A stretch of DNA of 64,000 bases from an uncultured delta proteobacterium (GTDB taxonomy: Bacteria > Myxococcota_A > Polyangia > Polyangiales > Houyiibacteriaceae), in the NCBI GenBank assembly GCA_963699755.1, contig CAVOVB010000003.1, forward strand, positions 1-64,000, given 5' to 3'. The first letter of the stretch is position 1. Each line of letters starts with the position of its first letter. The position numbers and the translations under genes are program-made. A model generated the notes under the pieces. That model was not told the DNA's origin. It worked only from the letters and a program-made list of their open reading frames with translations, and did no database searches. Below are positions 1 through 46,841 of the stretch, piece by piece.

Positions 1-18
1 AATCCGGCCCCCGCAACC
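1..18 (+). tRNA. 3' end of initiator tRNA-Met (partial, window edge); also the attL core GGCCCCCGCAACC (6-18)
   Basis: AATCCGGCCCCCGCAACC matches the T-arm/acceptor end of bacterial tRNA-fMet; longer copies at 22735, 25634 and 45411 carry the CAT anticodon loop. Cannot tell whether this copy is the intact gene. Confidence 0.75.
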
Positions 19-1685
19 CACAGCGTTGACCGCTCTTCAAGGCCCTCGGTTTGCACCGGGGGCTTTGTCGTTCCGCCAAAGAAAAGGGCGCCTCCGCGAA
101 CGGTCCAGCGGGCCCGATAGCGCCCGTCTTCGAGGGGGTGGAGCTCAACGCCATCGTCGAGCAGATGCTTGAGCGCTTCTCGCGCGTCCTTGGGGCTCTT
201 GTCGAAGAGCGCACCGAGGTCACGAATCCGTGCGACGACGTCCTCGGGCCCGGGTAGGTCGAGTGGCGCGAGCATCGCTCCGAGCTCTTCGACTCGGCGA
301 CCTTGTCTGCTGGCGAGGACTTCGAGCTCGCGGATCTTCTCGAGGATGCTAGCCGGCGCCGTCCCGGTGGAGGCGAGGTCGACGAGGTTGTCGATCTTGG
401 CTCGAGTCGTGGCAAGCGCCGTTTCGGCCCCGGCGCGCTCGTCGGGGACGGTGCGCTGCACCCTCGCGAGCTCAGCTCGGGCCGTCTCGATGAGATGTGC
501 GACGACCTCGGGCCGATTGAAATACAGGAGCATCGCGGACGTGAAGGCCTCTCGTAGGGCGTCTTCCATCACCGTGTGGGAGTTGTCACACGATCCACCG
601 TTGCCGCGGCTGGCATCACATCGGTAGCGAGGCTTTTGCGTCTTCTCGATCACCATCGGGCCGCCACAGACACCGCAGCGGATCAAGGTAGACAGAGGGT
701 AGACCCGGCGCGCGGTGCTGGCCCCGCCTTTGCGGCAATAGGCGGATCGGCCAAGGGCCGCGTACCGCTTTCGGGCTTCGTCGTTGCGTGCTTGGACGAG
801 GGACCAGGTCTGTTCGTCCACGATGCGGAGCTCGGGCAGCTCGACCTCGACCATCGGAGACTCGCCTGGGCGCACGACGCGCTTGCCCGTCGTGGGGCTC
901 TTCTTCCAAGCGCGGGCGCCGAAGGTCCAGCGGCCAGCGTACTTCGAGTTCTGGAGCATCGAGCGGACTCCGGACATGGCCCACCCGTTGCGCCGTTTTC
1001 GCGAATCCTTCTGTCGTCCTCGAGGTGGGGGCACCCCTTCGTCGTTGAGGGTCTTGGCGATGTCCCGGTAGCTCCGCCCAGCGGCTCTCATCTGGAAGAT
1101 GCGTTGAACGACCGTCGCTTGCGCCGCCATGATGACCGGGACTTTCCCGTGACCGTCCGCCGCAGCCGTCGACGTGTACCCGTAGGGCAGGGCTCCCGTC
1201 ACCCGTCCGATCTGGGCCCGGTCTCGGAGACCCCGGCTCGTTTTGTCCCCCAAGTCTTTGAGGTACTGTTCGCTCAGGATGGATTTCACGCCGTAGAGGA
1301 GGTCACCCCCATTACCCAGGGTGTCGATGCCGTCGGCGATTCCAATGAGCCGCACCCCCGAAAACGCGAACCGCTTCCGGATGGACGCGGAGTGCTCGAT
1401 GTCTCGAGAGAGGCGCGAGAGGTCTTCCACGACGACTATGTCGAGCTCCCCGGAGTCCACCGCCGCCATGAGCGAAATCAGCCCCGGCCGCTGATTCGTG
1501 GCGCCGCTGATGCCTTCGTCGCGATAGGTGTGCTCGGGGCAGAGCTGACCACCCCGTGCCTCCACCCACTGCCGAAGACGCGCAATCTGCGCGGACGCGC
1601 TTGTCTCCGATTGCTTGTCCGACGAAAACCGGGCGTAGGCGCCGATCCTCAGTCCTGCGAGTTGTCGGTCCATCGCAGGGCGCAT
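1..1685 (-). CDS. Large serine recombinase (resolvase + recombinase + Zn-ribbon + coiled coil); runs off the window through the att core
   Basis: Manual translation (absent from the ORF track as no stop in window): MRPAMDRQLAGLRIGAYARFSS..DEGISG..RPGL..EDLSRLSRD..LPYGY..CGVCGGPM..YRC..LEERSTLWVAGAG; AAGGA RBS upstream. Confidence 0.93.
   Translation of the reverse strand, partial: MRPAMDRQLAGLRIGAYARFSSDKQSETSASAQIARLRQWVEARGGQLCPEHTYRDEGISGATNQRPGLISLMAAVDSGELDIVVVEDLSRLSRDIEHSASIRKRFAFSGVRLIGIADGIDTLGNGGDLLYGVKSILSEQYLKDLGDKTSRGLRDRAQIGRVTGALPYGYTSTAAADGHGKVPVIMAAQATVVQRIFQMRAAGRSYRDIAKTLNDEGVPPPRGRQKDSRKRRNGWAMSGVRSMLQNSKYAGRWTFGARAWKKSPTTGKRVVRPGESPMVEVELPELRIVDEQTWSLVQARNDEARKRYAALGRSAYCRKGGASTARRVYPLSTLIRCGVCGGPMVIEKTQKPRYRCDASRGNGGSCDNSHTVMEDALREAFTSAMLLYFNRPEVVAHLIETARAELARVQRTVPDERAGAETALATTRAKIDNLVDLASTGTAPASILEKIRELEVLASRQGRRVEELGAMLAPLDLPGPEDVVARIRDLGALFDKSPKDAREALKHLLDDGVELHPLEDGRYRARWTVRGGALFFGGTTKPPVQTEGLEERSTLWVAGAG
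42..67 (+). terminator. Terminator-like hairpin in LSR left arm, downstream of tRNA end
   Basis: GCCCTCGGT-TTGC-ACCGGGGGC-TTTGT; also at ~25890 and ~32432. Confidence 0.5.
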
Positions 1686-1686
1686 C

Positions 1687-1869
1687 CTATCGTTCCTTGA
1701 TCAGACTTGCCACCGCCGAGCGCACCAGGATCGTCAGCGCGTGCCGCTCGGGCGCGGAGAGCCGCTGGTGCGGACGCGGGGCGTTGAATCGGTTGCCTTG
1801 CTCGCCCTGGTCCTTCGGCAGGCGGCGTGATGTGCGCGTAGGTTGGCTTGTGCGAGGCGTTCCGGCCAT
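1687..1869 (-). CDS. Small protein upstream of LSR, candidate directionality factor
   Basis: 60 aa, stop abuts LSR start; same position as xis in the tyrosine element; no recognisable motif. Confidence 0.35.
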   Translation of the reverse strand: MAGTPRTSQPTRTSRRLPKDQGEQGNRFNAPRPHQRLSAPERHALTILVRSAVASLIKER

Positions 1870-1974
1870 TCCCCGTTATCGGTTTTGCCCCCGAAAAAGT
1901 TGCTCGAGCCACCCAGTGGGCTCCGTAGCGTTTTCTGTCGCAAAGTGGCGCACAGTGATTCGTCATGCCGCACT

Positions 1975-2230
1975 TTGCATCCTTTTGCTCAATTGTGATT
2001 CGCTCTGACTCAAAATGGAGAACTTTGCTTCGTTTCGCGTCAGAAGGATTCACTTTGCTTCAGAGTTGCGCAGAAGGATCCAAAATTGTTCATCGTGCGG
2101 CAAAAGAGGTCACGACTTGTTCGGGCAAGGCATAGTTTTGGCAGACACCAAAAACTGCGCGGCACTCGCTTCGGGTCTTCGTCCCGAGTTCGACCGTGGT
2201 TGCTGCGCTCAACGCCTTCGGCTTATTCGC
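1975..2230 (+). repeat. Origin-like backbone module copy 1 (short direct repeats + oriT-like IR/nic)
   Basis: GGGCAAGGCATAGTTTTGGCAGACACCAAAAACT at 2123-2156; inverted homologue 4182-4436; homologue 19678-19792. Confidence 0.8.
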
Positions 2231-2505
2231 ACCCGGCCGATCGCGATTGCACTGCTGACATCGACTGACTACCAGCGCCAGCGGCTGCATCAATGATGGT
2301 GCGGTGATCGGATCTCGTTGGCTGTCAACGCACAAAGCGAACCAGTGAAGAATTACGTATGGCGCATTCTTTTCGCGAGCCGAGGCAGTCTGTGAGGCTG
2401 CAAGGCGCATGACTTGCTGGAAAAGCACGGCATGTAGCACGTGGCACGCTTGATGCATGGAGATTGCCTCAATAGCGCTCTGCGCTCGAATCCGGGAGGT
2501 GGACC

Positions 2506-3087
2506 ATGCGTGACGCATTCGGATTTCTAGGTGCCTTGGCACTGAGCCTGATGCTGTCCCTTGGGTGCAGTGAAGGCGGCGGCGAAGGCGGCAGTGGTGG
2601 CACGGCTGGAAGCGGTGGCACGGCTGGAAGCGGTGGCACGGGCGGCATGCCCGAATGTCAGTGCGACTTCGGGAGCGACTGCCTGAGGGGTGGTGCTTGT
2701 CGGGTACTTAGTTGCGTCGGTGAGGACGACGAAACCCCTTGCATCTGGACTTTTATTGGCTCTGGCTGGTACCCTGGTCTTTGCGTCGGTGGCACATGCG
2801 AGCGTGCCGTGGAGGATTGCACCGGCCAGGAGGACAGCACGGCATGTAGTGCGTTCGATGGCGCGGAGGCCTATTGTCGGCTGGAGCAATGCGCCACGAA
2901 TGAGTGCACCGGCCTGGAGGACAGAACCTATTGCGTGTTCGCCGTACTCGGCGACGGGACATTGGGCGTTTGCGAGACTGGCAAGTGCACGAAGCCAGAG
3001 GATTGCGCCGGCCTTGTCGACGGCTGGGATTGCCTAGACGTCGAAGTCGGTGTTTGCGAAGGTGGCGAATGCATCACTGCTCCGTAG
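2506..3087 (+). CDS. Cys-rich lipoprotein with Gly/Ser linker
   Basis: GGAGG RBS, lipobox LSLGC, GGTAGS 18-bp repeats, Cys-rich repeats. Confidence 0.85.
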   Translation: MRDAFGFLGALALSLMLSLGCSEGGGEGGSGGTAGSGGTAGSGGTGGMPECQCDFGSDCLRGGACRVLSCVGEDDETPCIWTFIGSGWYPGLCVGGTCERAVEDCTGQEDSTACSAFDGAEAYCRLEQCATNECTGLEDRTYCVFAVLGDGTLGVCETGKCTKPEDCAGLVDGWDCLDVEVGVCEGGECITAP

Positions 3088-3274
3088 TGCGTCCAACCGG
3101 CGCGGACGTGGGTGCGTTTGAGGTGCAGCCGTGGCCGCGCACCGGCTGCGCACCGACGCCCCAAACGCAAGACTTGCGCGTCGCGGAAACGGAAACCGCT
3201 GCGAAAACGGGCTGGCACGGCTGATGCTTCCCCTTAGCGCAGTGGCGCTCTGCGCCGAGCCAGGGAGGTGGGTT

Positions 3275-4096
3275 ATGCGTTACGCATTTGGTTTGCTCTG
3301 CGTCTGCACGCTGGGCCTCGTGCCTTTCGTAGGGTGCGGTGACGCCAATGGTGGTGGCGGCGGTAGCGGCGGCTCGGCCGGAACGGGCGGCGTGGGCGAG
3401 CCTGTGCGTGTCGCCTTCATCGGGGACTCGATCACCGAGCGCGTGGGGACGGTGGATGACCCTGTGAACTACCCGGAGCATCTGGAGACGCTTCTCGGAG
3501 ATGACTTCGATCTAGGCAACTTCGGCTATGGCGGCGCCACGATGAGCCATGGCGGAGGGTTCTTTTCCTATTGGAACCTCCCCGTGTATGCCGAGGCGAA
3601 GGAGTTTGAAGCGGACATCGCCACGATCATGCTCGGCACCAACGACACCAAGCCTCAGGTGTGGGACGCGACCGCGTTTGAGTCGGACTACAATGACATG
3701 ATCGAAGAGCTGCAAGACCTGCCCTCCAATCCCACGATCGTGCTCCTGCTACCAGCGCCGGTTTTTGGTGACAATGAGTTCGACATTCGAGGCGATGTTT
3801 TGCGAGACGAGGTGATTCCGATCATCGAATCACTGGGAGCGGAGCACGCGCTCAACGTCGTCGATCTCTACACTCCTCTTCTCGACCAGGGCGAGCTTTT
3901 CCCCGATAACGTTCATCCCACCGCTGAAGGTGGCTTGCTCATCGCACAGCAGCTGGTCGCTCCACTCGAGGCGGCCGCGAAAGCTCGCGGGTTCGAGTTG
4001 GCGGATGAGGAGCAACACGCCGCGACCCTTCCCCAAGAAGCGAAGCACGAAGTGGGGCCGCTACGCGACGTGGGTGCGTTTGAGGTGCAGCCGTAG
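3275..4096 (+). CDS. SGNH/GDSL hydrolase lipoprotein
   Basis: FIGDSIT, GNFGYGG, MLGTND, DNVHP blocks; lipobox FVGC; start at MRYAF after GGAGG. Confidence 0.9.
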   Translation: MRYAFGLLCVCTLGLVPFVGCGDANGGGGGSGGSAGTGGVGEPVRVAFIGDSITERVGTVDDPVNYPEHLETLLGDDFDLGNFGYGGATMSHGGGFFSYWNLPVYAEAKEFEADIATIMLGTNDTKPQVWDATAFESDYNDMIEELQDLPSNPTIVLLLPAPVFGDNEFDIRGDVLRDEVIPIIESLGAEHALNVVDLYTPLLDQGELFPDNVHPTAEGGLLIAQQLVAPLEAAAKARGFELADEEQHAATLPQEAKHEVGPLRDVGAFEVQP

Positions 4097-4181
4097 CGCA
4101 CCAAATCAAGGCAGGGGCAGCGACCTTCAGATCACTTCTGGGGTCGCCGTCTTCATTGTGAGCTCGACTCTGTCGCAGCGC

Positions 4182-4436
4182 GCGAATGAGCCGAAGGCGT
4201 TGAGCGCGCGACTCGCGCGACCGCTCGCGCGATCAGCGGGAGAAAGAAGCGCGTGCAGTTTTGTTGGCAGACAAAACTATCCCTTGCCCGAACAGAGTCT
4301 GGTTCCTTTTGACGCACGATGAACAATTTTGGAGCCTAATGCCCAACTCTGAAGCAAAGCGACTCCTATTGAATCGAAATGACGCAACCTGGAGCAGAAT
4401 GAGTCAGACCGAAGCACTTTCGTGCAAAACGATGCA
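4182..4436 (-). repeat. Origin-like backbone module copy 2 (inverted)
   Basis: Reverse-complement similarity to 1975-2230, including AGTTTTG-N8-CAAAACTATCCCTTGCCC. Confidence 0.8.
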
Positions 4437-4647
4437 GTATGAGGCAGAAGAGAGCAGAACGAGTCACTATGCATCAAAACGCGTCAGCAAAATGATGCAG
4501 CGACTCGAACTACTTCTTGAAGCGCGCAGTCGTGGGGCGTCCCAGGGATCTAGTCGACGTGACGCGTCTCGAGACGATAAGCGAGGAGAAGCGCTGCCAG
4601 AGACGGCCCGCCCCGGTTCAGCAGGATTCCATGCGTTCTTCGACCAG

Positions 4648-4722
4648 TTACGCGGCGATCACCACTTCCATCGGCAGCCCGAATTCCAGCGGACAACGCT
4701 GTGCGTATCGGGCCCCCGCAAC
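4648..4722 (-). repeat. LSR attR arm copy 1, encodes VAGARYAQRCPLEFGLPMEVVIAA*
   Basis: 75-bp repeat ending in tRNA core; stop TAA. Confidence 0.92.
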
Positions 4723-4733
4723 CAAGGAAGTCA

Positions 4734-4768
4734 GGCACTTAGCGAACTGGCTAGGTGCCTTTCTTTTT
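4734..4768 (+). terminator. Terminator in tyrosine-integrase left arm
   Basis: GGCACTTAGC-N6-GCTAGGTGCC-TTTCTTTTT; copies at 17953, 40266, 49849. Confidence 0.7.
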
Positions 4769-5078
4769 GCTCGTTGACGCGTGGTTGACATGAGGTGGTG
4801 CGAGCGGCGCCAACGCCTCGACCAAACGTCGTTGGGCACCCGATCCGAGGTGCGCGTACATGTGCGTGCTTTGCTCGGAGCGATGCCCGAGCTGGGCTTG
4901 TACGGCCTTGATCGAATGGCCTCCGGTGACCGCTTGGCTGGCGATCGAGTGGCCTCCGAGGGCGTGGTGACTGAGCGGCCGAAGGCCAAGCATGCGCTGT
5001 ACTTCGCGGGCCGGCCGCTTGTAGCCAGCGATGTAGCGAGGGAACGTGCCGTCTTTGCTGAAGAGGAACTCGGGCCCG
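4751..5078 (-). pseudogene. C-terminal remnant of tyrosine integrase
   Basis: GPEFLFSKDG..HHALGGHS..LGHRSEQSTHMYAHL..KKKGT*, very similar to 17970-19058 but truncated, catalytic Arg changed to Gly. Confidence 0.9.
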
Positions 5079-6814: not shown

Positions 6815-6889
6815 CTACGCGGCGATCACCACCTCCATGGGCAGCCCAAACTCCACCGGACAACGCTGTGCGTATCGGGCCCCCGCAAC
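6815..6889 (-). repeat. LSR attR arm copy 2 (..RYAQRCPVEFGLPMEVVIAA*)
   Basis: Mostly synonymous differences from copy 1; stop TAG. Confidence 0.92.
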
Positions 6890-17866: not shown

Positions 17867-17941
17867 TTACGCAGCAATCACCACCTCCATCGGCACCCCG
17901 AATTCCACCGGACAACGCTGTGCGTAACGGGCCCCCGCAAC
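17867..17941 (-). repeat. LSR attR arm copy 3 (..RYAQRCPVEFGVPMEVVIAA*)
   Basis: 75-bp repeat; stop TAA. Confidence 0.92.
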
Positions 17942-17969: not shown

Positions 17970-19058
17970 CTAGGTGCCTTTCTTTTTGCTCGGTGCCCTG
18001 AGGGTGCCATGCGGTGCTGCAGCAGGTTGCAATCCCTCCACTAAACGCAGTTGTGCGCGCGATCCAAGGTGCGCGTAGACGTGCGTACTTTGCTCCGAAC
18101 GATGTCCGAGCTGCGCTTGCACAGCCTTGATGGAGTGCCCGCTCGTCACCGCTTGGCTTGCGACCGAGTGGCGGCCGAGGGCGTGGTGACTGAGTGGTCG
18201 AAGCCCGAGCGCCCGCTGGACGGCGACCATCGGGCGTTTGTAGCTGTCGATGTAGCGAGGAAAGCTCCCGTCCTTGCTGAACAGGAACTCCGGGCCGGCG
18301 TATCTCTGCCGCATATGCCAGCGGATCGCGTCGAGGATATCCTCGGTCACGTCGAGCGAATACGCCTCGTTGTTCTTGCGCGTGACCAGCATGGCCGGCC
18401 GGTCTCTGGTGCCGCGCTGGACCCCCCGGTCGATGATCAACTGGGGTGGGATGTCCCGGAGGCGGCTCCGCGCGATGGCGTAGACCTCCGAGGCGCGAAG
18501 CCCGAGTCGGGCCGAGAGGTAGAAGAAGAGGTACCATTCGGGTTGGAGCTCGAACATACCGGCCAAGAACCGGTCTCGCTCGGACTCCGAGTACCACTTG
18601 GGTGGCTTCTTCGCGGTGCGTTCCGTCGGCACGTAGGGCACTGCGGCCAGCAGCCCCCGTTTCCAACAGAACCGTAGGACAGCTCGCACCAAGGCGAGTC
18701 GATTGTTGACGGATTTGGGTCCGAGCCGGGAGGGAAGGGCGCGCTTGAGCGCGTCCATCGCCGAGGTGTCCACCTCCTCGATGAAGAGGTGCCCGAGCAC
18801 CGGTTGGATCTGCGGCCAGAGATTCGCGTAGGAATCCCGACTGCGATCTTTCATCGTCGTCGCCGACAGGTACTGCTCGTATGCGTCGGCGAATTGGATG
18901 CGCTTGTGACCTGAGATCAAGTCTTCGCGCGCCCTTCGTTCGGCTTCGTGCGCCTCGGCCCTCGTCTTGAAGCCAGCCCTTCGCTGGCGGCGGTAACCTT
19001 GGAGCTTGAAGTCGTATTGCCAAGAGTTGGCTCGCTTTCTAACGGCCATACGGTTCAT
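17970..19058 (-). CDS. int: Tyrosine integrase (start may be 19049)
   Basis: N-terminal arm-binding-like WQYDF..GFKTRAEA; GLRASE, HALGRH, LGH, Y catalytic motifs. Confidence 0.95.
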   Translation of the reverse strand: MNRMAVRKRANSWQYDFKLQGYRRQRRAGFKTRAEAHEAERRAREDLISGHKRIQFADAYEQYLSATTMKDRSRDSYANLWPQIQPVLGHLFIEEVDTSAMDALKRALPSRLGPKSVNNRLALVRAVLRFCWKRGLLAAVPYVPTERTAKKPPKWYSESERDRFLAGMFELQPEWYLFFYLSARLGLRASEVYAIARSRLRDIPPQLIIDRGVQRGTRDRPAMLVTRKNNEAYSLDVTEDILDAIRWHMRQRYAGPEFLFSKDGSFPRYIDSYKRPMVAVQRALGLRPLSHHALGRHSVASQAVTSGHSIKAVQAQLGHRSEQSTHVYAHLGSRAQLRLVEGLQPAAAPHGTLRAPSKKKGT

Positions 19059-25810: not shown

Positions 25811-25924
25811 CAAATCCGGCCCCCGCAACCCATGTGCCCGGAATGAAGTGCTACCTATCTCTCAGGAAGCACATTGACCGCTCTTCAAGGCCCTCGGTTT
25901 TCACCGGGGGCTTTGTCGTTCCGA
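25811..25924 (+). repeat. tRNA end + LSR left-arm remnant with 36-bp insertion
   Basis: Matches 1-74 except insertion; same as 32360-32465. Confidence 0.85.
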
Positions 25925-26113
25925 CGATGACCTGCGGCAAAGACAAAGTGGAGCATCGGGGTAGGTGAGCTTGTCCCCAAGCGTGGAAACGTCGCCGATT
26001 GTGGGGCCGACGAGGTCTTGAGGAGGCACAACGATTCGCGCGAGCTCCGTGTCGTTGCAGCAAGGGGTGCCCTCGGTGCAAGCTGCGGCAGCAATTCACT
26101 CGGGGGTACTCTG

Positions 26114-32296: not shown

Positions 32297-32510
32297 TCAC
32301 GCCGCAATCACCGCTTCCATCCGCACCCCGAATTCCACTGGACAACGCTGTGCGTATCGGGCCCCCGCAACCCATGTGCCCGGAATGAAGTGCTACCTAT
32401 CTCTCAGGAAGCACATTGACCGCTCTTCAAGGCCCTCGGTTTTCACCGGGGGCTTTGTCGTTCCGCCAAAGAAAAGGGCGTTTCCGCGAACGGTCCAGCG
32501 GGCCCGGTAG
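32297..32510 (-). repeat. LSR attR arm copy 4 (32297-32371, ..MEAVIAA*, TGA) joined to LSR 3' remnant
   Basis: Remnant YRARWTVRGNALFFGGTTKPP matches LSR C-terminus. Confidence 0.9.
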
Positions 32511-32529
32511 CCTAGAGATTGCGCCCGAC

Positions 32530-37196: not shown

Positions 37197-38144
37197 ATGA
37201 TCGATTCCACGCAAGACGACGAGAAGGTCCAGTCGTTCTGCGTTCGGAAATCCGGCTATTATCGCGACAAATGGAAGAAGTTCGACGAGAAGCCTGGCTC
37301 GATCACGAGCTTCAATCTGGCGGCATGCGTAGGCCAGTTGGTATGGCTTGCCTATAGAAAGCTCTATATGCCCCTGCTCTGGGCGGCGGTCGTTTCCATC
37401 GCGTGCGCGTCGCTAAGGAGCTGCGTCGAACACGAGCAATTCATATCGGGGAACTTGGTCGCGGCGTGGGATTTGTTCGCCGTGTTTCTGTACCTCGCTG
37501 TTTTCGGTCTTCTCGGTAACTACTGGTATTGGCGAAAGTTCCGACAGGTCGCCCAGCAAGCAGCTCTCCGAGAATCGGACAGAGACGCGCAACTTCGTTT
37601 TATTCAATCCAAAGGTGGCACTAGCACGGTTGCCGCATGGGTCGTGCTTGTGCTGCTGCTCATGCCGGCCTCCTACTGGGGCGTATACCAGGCAAGCCGG
37701 ATCGACGACTCGGCGTTTGTTCTTCAAGCGACAGGTCCGCTGACTCTCGCCGAGGTCGAGGCGAACTTCCTCGCTTTCATGGATGAGCCGCTGGCTGGCG
37801 AGCGCAAGCAGTGCGTCTTCAGAGAGGTAACGGAGCGCGCTCGTGTAGCCGGGGATCCGGAGGCGCTGGACCCGGCGGCGGTCGAGCTTCTCCCGGCCGA
37901 CGGATGGGATCAGCTGGATCCGTCTGGCAAGCGCCTCATCCTGGCACAGGCGATAGGCACGAAGGCCTTCTTCGTCTGCAAATGGCCTTCCCCCGGGGCT
38001 TCGGCCACTGAAAACCTGGCAGACAAGTTGCCCGCGAAACCGCCCGAGAGTCTTCGGAATCGGGGGCTACGAAGCAATCACCGCTTCCATCGGCACCCCG
38101 AATTCCACTGGACAACGCTGTGCGTATGCGGCCCTCGCAACTAA
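37197..38144 (+). CDS. DUF2628-like membrane protein; 3' end runs into attR arm
   Basis: YY..KW..SFNLAA..WLAYRKLY..GNYWY..KGGTS. Confidence 0.7.
   Translation: MIDSTQDDEKVQSFCVRKSGYYRDKWKKFDEKPGSITSFNLAACVGQLVWLAYRKLYMPLLWAAVVSIACASLRSCVEHEQFISGNLVAAWDLFAVFLYLAVFGLLGNYWYWRKFRQVAQQAALRESDRDAQLRFIQSKGGTSTVAAWVVLVLLLMPASYWGVYQASRIDDSAFVLQATGPLTLAEVEANFLAFMDEPLAGERKQCVFREVTERARVAGDPEALDPAAVELLPADGWDQLDPSGKRLILAQAIGTKAFFVCKWPSPGASATENLADKLPAKPPESLRNRGLRSNHRFHRHPEFHWTTLCVCGPRN
38067..38141 (-). repeat. LSR attR arm copy 5 (..MEAVIAS*)
   Basis: 75-bp repeat, one core mismatch. Confidence 0.88.
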
Positions 38145-40178: not shown

Positions 40179-40305
40179 CTACGCAGCAATCACCACCTCC
40201 ATCGGCACCCCGAATTCCACTGGACAACGCTGTGCGCAACAGGCCCCCGCAACCAACGAATTTGTGCACTTAGCAGAAACGCTAGGTGCCTTTCTTTTTG
40301 CTCGG
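40179..40305. repeat. LSR attR arm copy 6 (40179-40253) + tyrosine left-arm stub
   Basis: ..CAQRCPVEFGVPMEVVIAA*; then terminator and KKKGT* stub. Confidence 0.9.
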
Positions 40306-45263: not shown

Positions 45264-45446
45264 GTTGACCTCAGGGTGCCAGGGCGATCTGAAGTCACGT
45301 GATATCGCCTGACGAACCGTGAACACGGCGATACGGGCAAATCCCCATCATGCCGAAGACTTGTGTGGTTCCCGTGTGGCGTGATGGCGTGCGAACCTGG
45401 GCCTTCGTGAGCTCATAACCCGAAGGTCGTCGGTTCAAATCCGGCC
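45264..45446 (+). repeat. Tyrosine-type attR: arm B + truncated tRNA half (45411-45446)
   Basis: GCTCATAACCCGAAGGTCGTCGGTTCAAATCCGGCC. Confidence 0.85.
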
Positions 45447-46764: not shown

Positions 46765-46836
46765 CTACGCAGCAATCACCAACTCCATCGGCACCCCAAA
46801 CTCCATCGGACGACGCTGTGCGCAACGGGCCCCCGC
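46765..46836 (-). repeat. LSR attR arm copy 7 (..MELVIAA*), core truncated
   Basis: Repeat homology; stop TAG. Confidence 0.88.
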
Positions 46837-46841
46837 CTTCT

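Follow-up and report, generated by a model that had tools for sequence, protein, structure and literature searches.

An integrase gene that has no stop codon before its own attachment (att) site raises the question of where the encoded protein ends, and whether it ends in the same place when the element is integrated and when it is free. We addressed this question for a large serine recombinase (LSR) gene at the end of contig C3 (CAVOVB010000003.1) from an uncultured delta proteobacterium of the order Polyangiales (GCA_963699755.1), a genome of 5.35 Mb in 11 contigs. The DNA analyzed, referred to here as the window, was the first 64 kb of this contig, and the window start is also the contig end. 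The gene lies in an integrative element of 4.7 kb (window 1-4723) at the 3' end of an initiator transfer RNA (tRNA) gene, tRNA-Met. Very probably the LSR gene spans its own attP and its C-terminus is swapped on integration, giving the recombinase two alternative endings.

The integrase gene, its att sites and its endings

The LSR gene (3..1685, minus strand) comprised 561 codons in the window, was open at the contig end and read ...EERSTLWVAGAG. An earlier note on this DNA (the original prediction) had claimed that this frame has no stop before the att core, and both the open reading frame (ORF) list and the sequence bore this out. The predicted product carried three Pfam domains in the order PF00239 Resolvase (16-161), PF07508 Recombinase (189-303) and PF13408 Zn_ribbon_recom (330-385), all scoring over their cut-offs, and matched PHROG 95 integrase (E 2.3e-88); the domain set and the PHROG match together identified the gene as a large serine recombinase. 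In the model of a homologue (P0054, 38% identical) the zinc ribbon was followed by a long coiled-coil with helices at 352-417 and 420-444.

The start of contig C11 was the reverse complement of a tRNA-Met(CAT) and overlapped the window start by 15 bp. Extension of the gene upstream, which the original prediction had proposed as a check, was done across this overlap and yielded an integrated C-terminus ending ...WVAGAGFEPTTFGL at a TGA in the antisense anticodon loop, with a predicted length of 569 aa for the integrated LSR. By eye, the tRNA at C11 had a C1-A72 mismatch and three G-C pairs in the anticodon stem, which are marks of a bacterial initiator tRNA. The antisense-tRNA ending that had been predicted was thus recovered from the C11 overlap and from homologous loci in which gene and tRNA are contiguous; it is not readable inside the window itself.

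A total of 596 proteins matched the LSR and the counts given here are from the best 120 of these 596 homologues. The close homologues (83-91% identical, 565-569 aa) all ended WVAGAGFEPTTFGL or WVAGARFELTTFGL. The tRNA-Met antisense peptide ended 47 of the best 120 and other antisense tRNA frames (GGRI, GGWI, AGWN) ended a further 17, for a total of 64 antisense tRNA endings that came from several phyla as judged by source names. About 22 of the best 120 continued past this xAGA point with different tails, which were 10-33 residues long (16-21 residues in 11 of them). At the DNA level, the LSR frame entered antisense tRNA-Met at nine related loci (L002, L004, L007, L010, L053, L055, L057, L058 and L061). 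ARAGORN called a whole tRNA-Met at eight of the nine, and L061 held the tRNA 3' half only. In other families of the order, homologues that were just 28-40% identical likewise ran on into tRNA-Met or tRNA-Glu (L011-L014).

The att site was a 48-bp imperfect palindrome (23+2+23) with a central CC/GG. Its half-site arms were 78-83% complementary with 2 nt between them at natural junctions (L067, L051). A short site of two half-sites around a central dinucleotide is what is expected of a serine integrase, for which published abstracts give att sites of 40-50 bp. On the integrase side, attL (1..32, plus strand) consisted of the T-arm/acceptor end of tRNA-fMet (1-7), the central CC (8-9) and the LSR-side half-site P' (10-32). 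At the other end of the element, attR (4690..4723, plus strand) began with the tail-side half-site P (4690-4712), followed by a central CC at 4713-4714. The two sites shared a 13-bp block of identity (6-18 and 4711-4723). Its attR copy (4711-4723) is the 3' end displaced from the tRNA, and the next base, an A, completes ..ACCA.

Next to attR was an orphan LSR 3' end (4648..4710, minus strand) of 20 codons (RYAQRCPLEFGLPMEVVIAA) and a TAA stop, which meets the LSR frame only in the attP configuration, circular or tandem. The tail-side half-site spanned the codons for A-RYAQRCP so that the first seven tail codons lie inside it, and the 13 final codons with the stop (4648-4689) lie beyond the att site. 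The earlier claim that the EFG..IAA part falls outside the att site was therefore correct, with the site drawn as the 48-bp palindrome. Related elements with an LSR and a tail at opposite ends were found at G019:C169 (7.3 kb), G026:C5 (4.7 kb) and G036:C7 (6.3 kb). The direct repeats at the element ends and these related two-ended elements are indirect signs that the predicted LSR may recombine attP with attB.

The two endings can be written out as follows. In a free circle or a tandem copy the gene ends ...WVAGA-RYAQRCPxEFGxPMExVIAA*. Once the element is integrated, its last 20 codons are found at attR, 4.7 kb from the rest of the gene, which then ends ...WVAGA-GFEPTTFGL*, with nine residues taken from the antisense tRNA.

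Tail copies, joined frames and selection

The tail belongs to a 78-nt repeat family with seven copies in the window, starting at 4650, 6817, 17869, 32299, 38069, 40181 and 46767, and each copy was 83-100% identical to the reference copy. A 14-nt core, allowing up to 2 mismatches, occurred 11 times against 0.99 expected. The original prediction had reported seven copies in the LSR frame using all three stop codons. This was confirmed, as 7/7 copies read ..GA-R/C/A-Y/C-AQR-C/R-P-x-EFG-x-P/R-ME-x-VIA-A/S-stop, with TAA in two, TAG in four and TGA in one. Its claim of a terminal Ala-Ala in all seven stood for six of them, and the copy at 38067 ended Ala-Ser. Two further tail copies in the genome (C6:9081 and C2:373796) were both in frame and ended AA*. 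Across the genus, tail DNA was present in 29/55 genomes.

Coding constraint was assessed in a set of 64 non-identical tail copies, which are relatives and mostly orphans so that the numbers are counts of copies or variant types and not of independent events. All 64 copies were in frame with the core. The stop fell at the same codon in 58/64 (TAG 43, TAA 9, TGA 6) and no copy contained a premature stop (0/64). Beyond the att site, mismatches to the consensus at codon positions 1, 2 and 3 numbered 50, 34 and 144, in agreement with the predicted excess of third-position differences. Among the variant types, 22 of 29 possible synonymous types were seen as compared to 37 of 88 non-synonymous types (Fisher p=0.0014), and the two shifted frames showed no such enrichment (p=0.16 and p=0.98). 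Mean identity to the consensus stood at 0.95 for the att half-site, at 0.91 for the rest of the tail and at 0.84 for the stop codon; past the stop it dropped to 0.57 over 12 nt and to 0.45 at nt 13-30. The predicted loss of similarity at or just past the stop was therefore right for the fall in identity and wrong for 23/63 copies, in which a weaker CTGGTC... motif continued past the stop. The terminal Ala-Ala was kept no better than E18, G20, M23 or E24. These patterns argue with good confidence, as the original prediction had supposed, that purifying selection acts on the peptide encoded by the 13 tail codons outside the att site.

A tail peptide can be selected only through the joined form of the gene, and this suggests that the free-form enzyme needs its tail. 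Natural tail-core-LSR junctions were found at six places: in a genus genome (G004:C14), in four metagenome contigs and at window 32297. Four of the six (L051, L064, L066 and L067) were open and ran in frame from LSR codons into the tail, as predicted for an attP junction, and the longest joined reading frame was 123 aa (P0121). The search for the junction pattern returned 4 metagenome contigs, 0 viral contigs and 2/55 genus genomes, of which G031 held no LSR junction. The G031 hit (C4:359169-359260, L101) was a tail copy that followed 58 in-frame open codons that were not LSR-like (..HTMRWVAGARYAQ..).

In two AlphaFold models, examined for docking of the tail on the protein, the predicted local distance difference test (pLDDT) score was below 50 for residues 81-123 of P0121 and for residues 515-547 of the distant full-length homologue P0054, the remainder of which scored 73-98. 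As the tail and the 20-25 residues before it were not modelled with confidence, the tail is best read as a flexible C-terminal peptide that probably lies outside any folded domain.

Known systems and possible roles of the tail

An LSR gene with an intragenic attP is already in print, although it is a little-studied kind. In the passages of McMurdie et al. 2011 that deal with the Dehalococcoides DsiB islands, the dsiB serine recombinase gene always overlaps attL at its 3' end and finds a stop only outside the island; the authors suggest that full function of dsiB may be confined to the circular element, and that the gene may be complete only on the circle or beside an island that supplies a 3' fragment (PMC3146451). 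The statement in the original prediction that no LSR with this switch was known did not hold for this reason. As in our element, these passages describe an LSR gene that adjoins attL on the reverse strand and overlaps it, a stop within the target RNA gene or a neighboring island, and islands that form tandem arrays at one small-RNA gene (PMC3146451). In the element studied here the stop likewise lay beyond attL in the target RNA gene, and the other att arm continued the ORF in frame in the 4/6 natural junctions that are open. The systems differ in their target, which is transfer-messenger RNA (tmRNA, ssrA) for the DsiB islands and initiator tRNA-Met here, and in that the DsiB islands are described with a further, small serine recombinase (DsiA) and a module of six genes, neither of which was seen here (PMC3146451). 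They also differ in that the passages report divergent C-terminal ends for DsiB and no conserved alternative tail, whereas the tail here is conserved with coding constraint (PMC3146451). The likeness is one of layout.

As to the target, no serine integrase was known to use a tRNA gene at the time of the 2014 Islander paper, according to its relevant passage (PMC4383910). A Mesorhizobium island at a tRNA-Met 3' end, described in 2024, resembles the present element in having a 14-bp direct repeat and a serine recombinase ORF (PMC10990125). The Mesorhizobium islands are 53-172 kb as compared to 4.7 kb here, and the passage describing them is silent on a recombinase that reads across att or has an alternative C-terminus (PMC10990125).

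A tyrosine recombinase offers a parallel for what two endings could do. In the myxophage Mx8 integrase (IntP/IntX), as here, attP lies inside the integrase coding sequence and integration gives int a new 3' end, according to the passages on this phage (PMC6070905, PMC4383910), and the Islander paper describes the Mx8 and SSV integrases as extending across attP (PMC4383910). The altered Mx8 enzyme is reported to stay active with changed specificity (PMC6070905). The position of attP inside int, which the original prediction had cited, was verified. Mx8 Int is a tyrosine recombinase and the LSR has serine recombinase domains only, with no Mx8-type tyrosine recombinase catalytic domain, so that the likeness is an analogy of layout and not one of membership. 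By this analogy a resident LSR isoform lacking the tail would behave differently from the free form. We tentatively suggest, as our preferred role and a plausible if not a probable one, that the tail touches another subunit, a partner protein or DNA and in this way tunes recombination by the free form.

Several results weigh against a C-terminal swap with a functional free-form tail. Tails outnumber LSR genes in the window by 7 to 1. Over the 36 genus genomes searched for both, tails were present in 14/27 genomes without a strong LSR match as compared to 7/9 with one; with so many tails found without an LSR, most of the counted copies must be decaying orphans. Two of the six natural junctions (L065 and window 32297) had a stop before the core, located in L065 four codons before the W. 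All six carried LSR 3' remnants only and are therefore decayed tandem junctions and not circles. A full-length LSR with the tail was not found among the best 120 of the 596 homologues, and a word-based protein search with the tail-bearing fragment gave two matches among seven candidates, both integrated forms, which is weak evidence. The circle junction was not seen in the metagenome contigs of four of the 24 runs listed. The only back-joint, in one contig of run X1, joined 4723 to 26, whereas a true circle is expected to join at about 19 with 13 shared letters. Similarity at window locus 32297-32416 resumes exactly at 26 and for this reason the back-joint was read as that locus; it appears to fit the 32.3-kb locus better than a circle and is neutral as to whether a circle exists. 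The low pLDDT may reflect a shallow alignment of the tail and not disorder, and a difference in activity between the two isoforms would be argued from Mx8 by analogy.

A second role for the tail, which we regard as doubtful though possible, is an ssrA/ClpX-type degradation or unfoldase signal that would make the free-form LSR short-lived and the integrated form stable. Most copies do end [V/A/L]-[V/L]-I-A-A, with IAA* in 45/64 and VAA* in 4/64, and IAA ended all four tails on LSR-bearing elements (window 4648, L052, L053:7471 and L054), a set of four pairs in which the LSR is frame-shifted in two. The host tmRNA tag ends ..VALAA and the tail ends ..VVIAA, clpP-clpX is present in the genome (C3:509146-509932), and the predicted lack of structure would leave the tail accessible. 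Yet the equal conservation of E18, G20, M23 and E24 sets the terminal Ala-Ala apart in no way, Ala-Ala was lost in 11/64 copies, and conservation extends over 13/13 residues past the att site, where a minimal Ala-Ala signal would need fewer. In the distant tails (among the best 120 of 596 homologues) Ala-Ala ended 4 of about 22, against 1.8% of crude ORFs; the majority nonetheless ended otherwise, and Ala-Ala is the commonest C-terminal dipeptide in the crude ORF set of this G+C-rich genome (72/3905). Several other distant tails ended in basic residues and Ala or Ser, an end that resembles the basic (second) class of C-terminal ClpX signals; P0046, P0050, P0054, P0061, P0076, P0086 and P0113 each had two to three basic residues followed by Ala/Ser. 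The Ala-Ala end was also what drew attention to this case and is a weaker cue for that reason. Finally, the element is small and has no recognized replication gene, and a degron on its integrase would be expected to reduce the chance of integration.

The precedent for such a signal is the mycobacteriophage BPs. The BPs integrase is a tyrosine recombinase and its C-terminal feature is reported to be a degradation tag. In the passages on the BPs repressor, attP lies inside the ORF, as here, and integration strips the protein of a C-terminal extension bearing an ssrA-like tag, with proteolysis of the free form setting the outcome (PMC4557955). The removal of this tag, also cited in the original prediction, was found to be correctly described. 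The gene that is split differs, being the repressor in BPs and the integrase here, and instability of the free form has been demonstrated for BPs (PMC4557955), whereas for the LSR here it would be a prediction. A literature search found no serine integrase with a swapped or Clp-targeted C-terminus. A broader version of the degradation reading, in which a widespread clade of tRNA-targeting LSRs toggles a flexible ClpX-type signal by means of an intragenic attP and is destroyed or remodelled only while free, is slightly more doubtful again.

It is improbable, although less simply dismissed than the last alternative below, that the swap is real and inconsequential, with the ORF simply running on to the next stop and the conservation reflecting DNA-level constraint or recent common descent. 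McMurdie et al. allowed a 'trivial explanation' of this kind for dsiB (PMC3146451). In its favor, the att half-site dictates the first seven tail codons, kinship among the copies inflates the count of independent events, and the weak DNA motif runs past the stop in the 23/63 copies noted above. None of this accounts readily for a third-position and synonymous bias confined to the tail frame, for the lack of premature stops combined with three different stop codons at one position, or for the sharp fall of identity at the stop. In addition, among the best 120 of 596, tails of 16-21 aa recurred in 11 of about 22 cases at the same xAGA point in homologues that are only 30-40% identical.

Very improbably, the 75-bp repeat could be unrelated to the LSR, either as a tRNA-like pseudogene (repeat and core add up to 77 nt, a tRNA length) or as an att arm or 3' end of a tyrosine-integrase island (a hairpin follows three window copies, and then a tyrosine integrase gene at 17929 and a weak remnant of one at 4710), but ARAGORN found no tRNA in the window and the 45 nt left of the tail cores were only 22-31% identical to tRNA, which rules out a tRNA-like gene, and the tyrosine integrase ORF (17970..19058) ends before the hairpin, which rules out the tail as its end. 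The repeat of the tyrosine-integrase islands is another one, the 45-nt 3' half of a tRNA (22766 and 25665), and in four junctions LSR codons pass straight into the tail without a frame change, which contradicts a repeat unrelated to the LSR.

Cargo, the island array and significance

The remainder of the element was also annotated. Directly upstream of the LSR was a very basic ORF of 60 codons (1687..1869, minus strand) that matched no Pfam or PHROG family. It was dropped as a known excisionase or directionality factor on this basis; it may be a candidate accessory or directionality factor, or possibly no gene. The block formed by the LSR, this ORF and about 50 bp (1-1921) was 86-92% identical in 7/8 related loci compared, and in the eighth (L062) the match stopped at 1716. 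Inverted repeats (left copy 1976..2230, right copy 4182..4436) flanked the cargo and were 75% identical over 260 nt in inverted orientation (blastn, 1691-2400 against 4001-4660). These 260-bp repeats around the two cargo genes had a lower G+C content and many short TTTGC-type motifs. Metagenome contig depth was highest on them, and one contig in run X2 joined 2231 to 4178 and so lacked the cargo.

The first cargo ORF (2506..3087, plus strand) encoded a Gly/Ser- and Cys-rich product with a lipoprotein-type signal by eye and matched no family. The second (3275..4096, plus strand) encoded a GDSL/SGNH hydrolase (Pfam Lipase_GDSL_2, E 1.8e-24); its start was the GTG at 3131 in the ORF list and is alternatively the ATG at 3275, after a lipoprotein-type signal seen by eye. 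Pfam recognized no replication gene among the 60-codon ORF and the two cargo ORFs. A motif of about 30 nt encoding [DV]/[DA]GAFEVQP was located at or near the 3' ends of the cargo ORFs (window 3102-3131 and 4064-4096) and was also found at C1:131222, C2:846576, C3:111042, C6:56 and C6:905, for seven copies genome-wide. Six copies read DVGAFEVQP and the copy at C2:846576 read DAGAFEVQP. The stop codon came directly after the motif in 5/7 and after one more codon in a sixth. The edges of this motif were the exact end points of many metagenome contigs (loose ends at 4065 and 4096), and the motif may mark the boundary of a cassette or act in C-terminal sorting. Just past the displaced tRNA 3' end was a terminator-like hairpin (4733-4760) with a T-run (4733..4770, plus strand), and the same hairpin followed the cores at 17929 and 40241.

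Over its first 50 kb the window consists of decayed islands arrayed in tandem at one tRNA-fMet gene, with twelve core-type junctions. The tail was on the left in seven of these. Beyond the copy at the element itself, orphan tail copies on the minus strand were at 6815..6889 (…PVEFGLPMEVVIAA, TAG), 17867..17941 (TAA, followed by the hairpin and the tyrosine integrase gene at 17970..19058, minus strand, identified by Pfam), 38067..38141 (..VIAS, TAG), 40179..40253 (TAG) and 46765..46839 (TAG, with a truncated core). In the copy at 32297..32511 (minus strand), an in-frame, stop-containing insert of 36 bp separated a tail ending in TGA and its core from an LSR 3' remnant (32416-32511) that was 96% identical to window 26-121; this copy is a decayed tandem junction. 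At 25814..25969 (minus strand), a short tRNA end and core led through the 36-bp insert into an LSR 3' remnant, and this locus is a decayed attL of another LSR element. Junctions 22766 and 25665 had a 45-nt tRNA 3' half on the left, as expected for tyrosine-integrase islands, and junctions 25817 and 32359 had LSR 3' remnants on the right. A third copy of the tRNA 3' half was at 45365-45446.

The 36-bp insert (25831-25873 and 32373-32415) lay in frame between the core and the LSR remnant and introduced a stop (..EERSMCFLRDR*). Its two copies were 97% identical to each other and the insert was seen in remnants only; an LSR variant carrying it would end before the att core. A hybrid junction was observed at L057 (G023:C5, 7690-7760), where the core and the first tail codons (..VAGARYAQR) ran without a gap into an antisense tRNA 3' half, as though an att of the tyrosine-integrase type had broken into the LSR tail.

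Together these data bear on how integrases of this type are annotated and used. As the layout is common (64 of the best 120 of 596 homologues end in antisense tRNA), automatic annotation reports tRNA-derived C-termini as if they were native. Serine integrases are mined as tools for genome engineering and a protein derived from a genome sequence may lack its natural tail. The 64 natural tail copies in the genus array are an unusually good set for designing tests of half-life and recombination. If the two isoforms differ, the element would have a built-in sensor of its free or integrated state that needs only the position of attP in the gene and no extra regulator, and if the ClpX-type toggle were true, the lifetime of the enzyme would be tied directly to the integration state.

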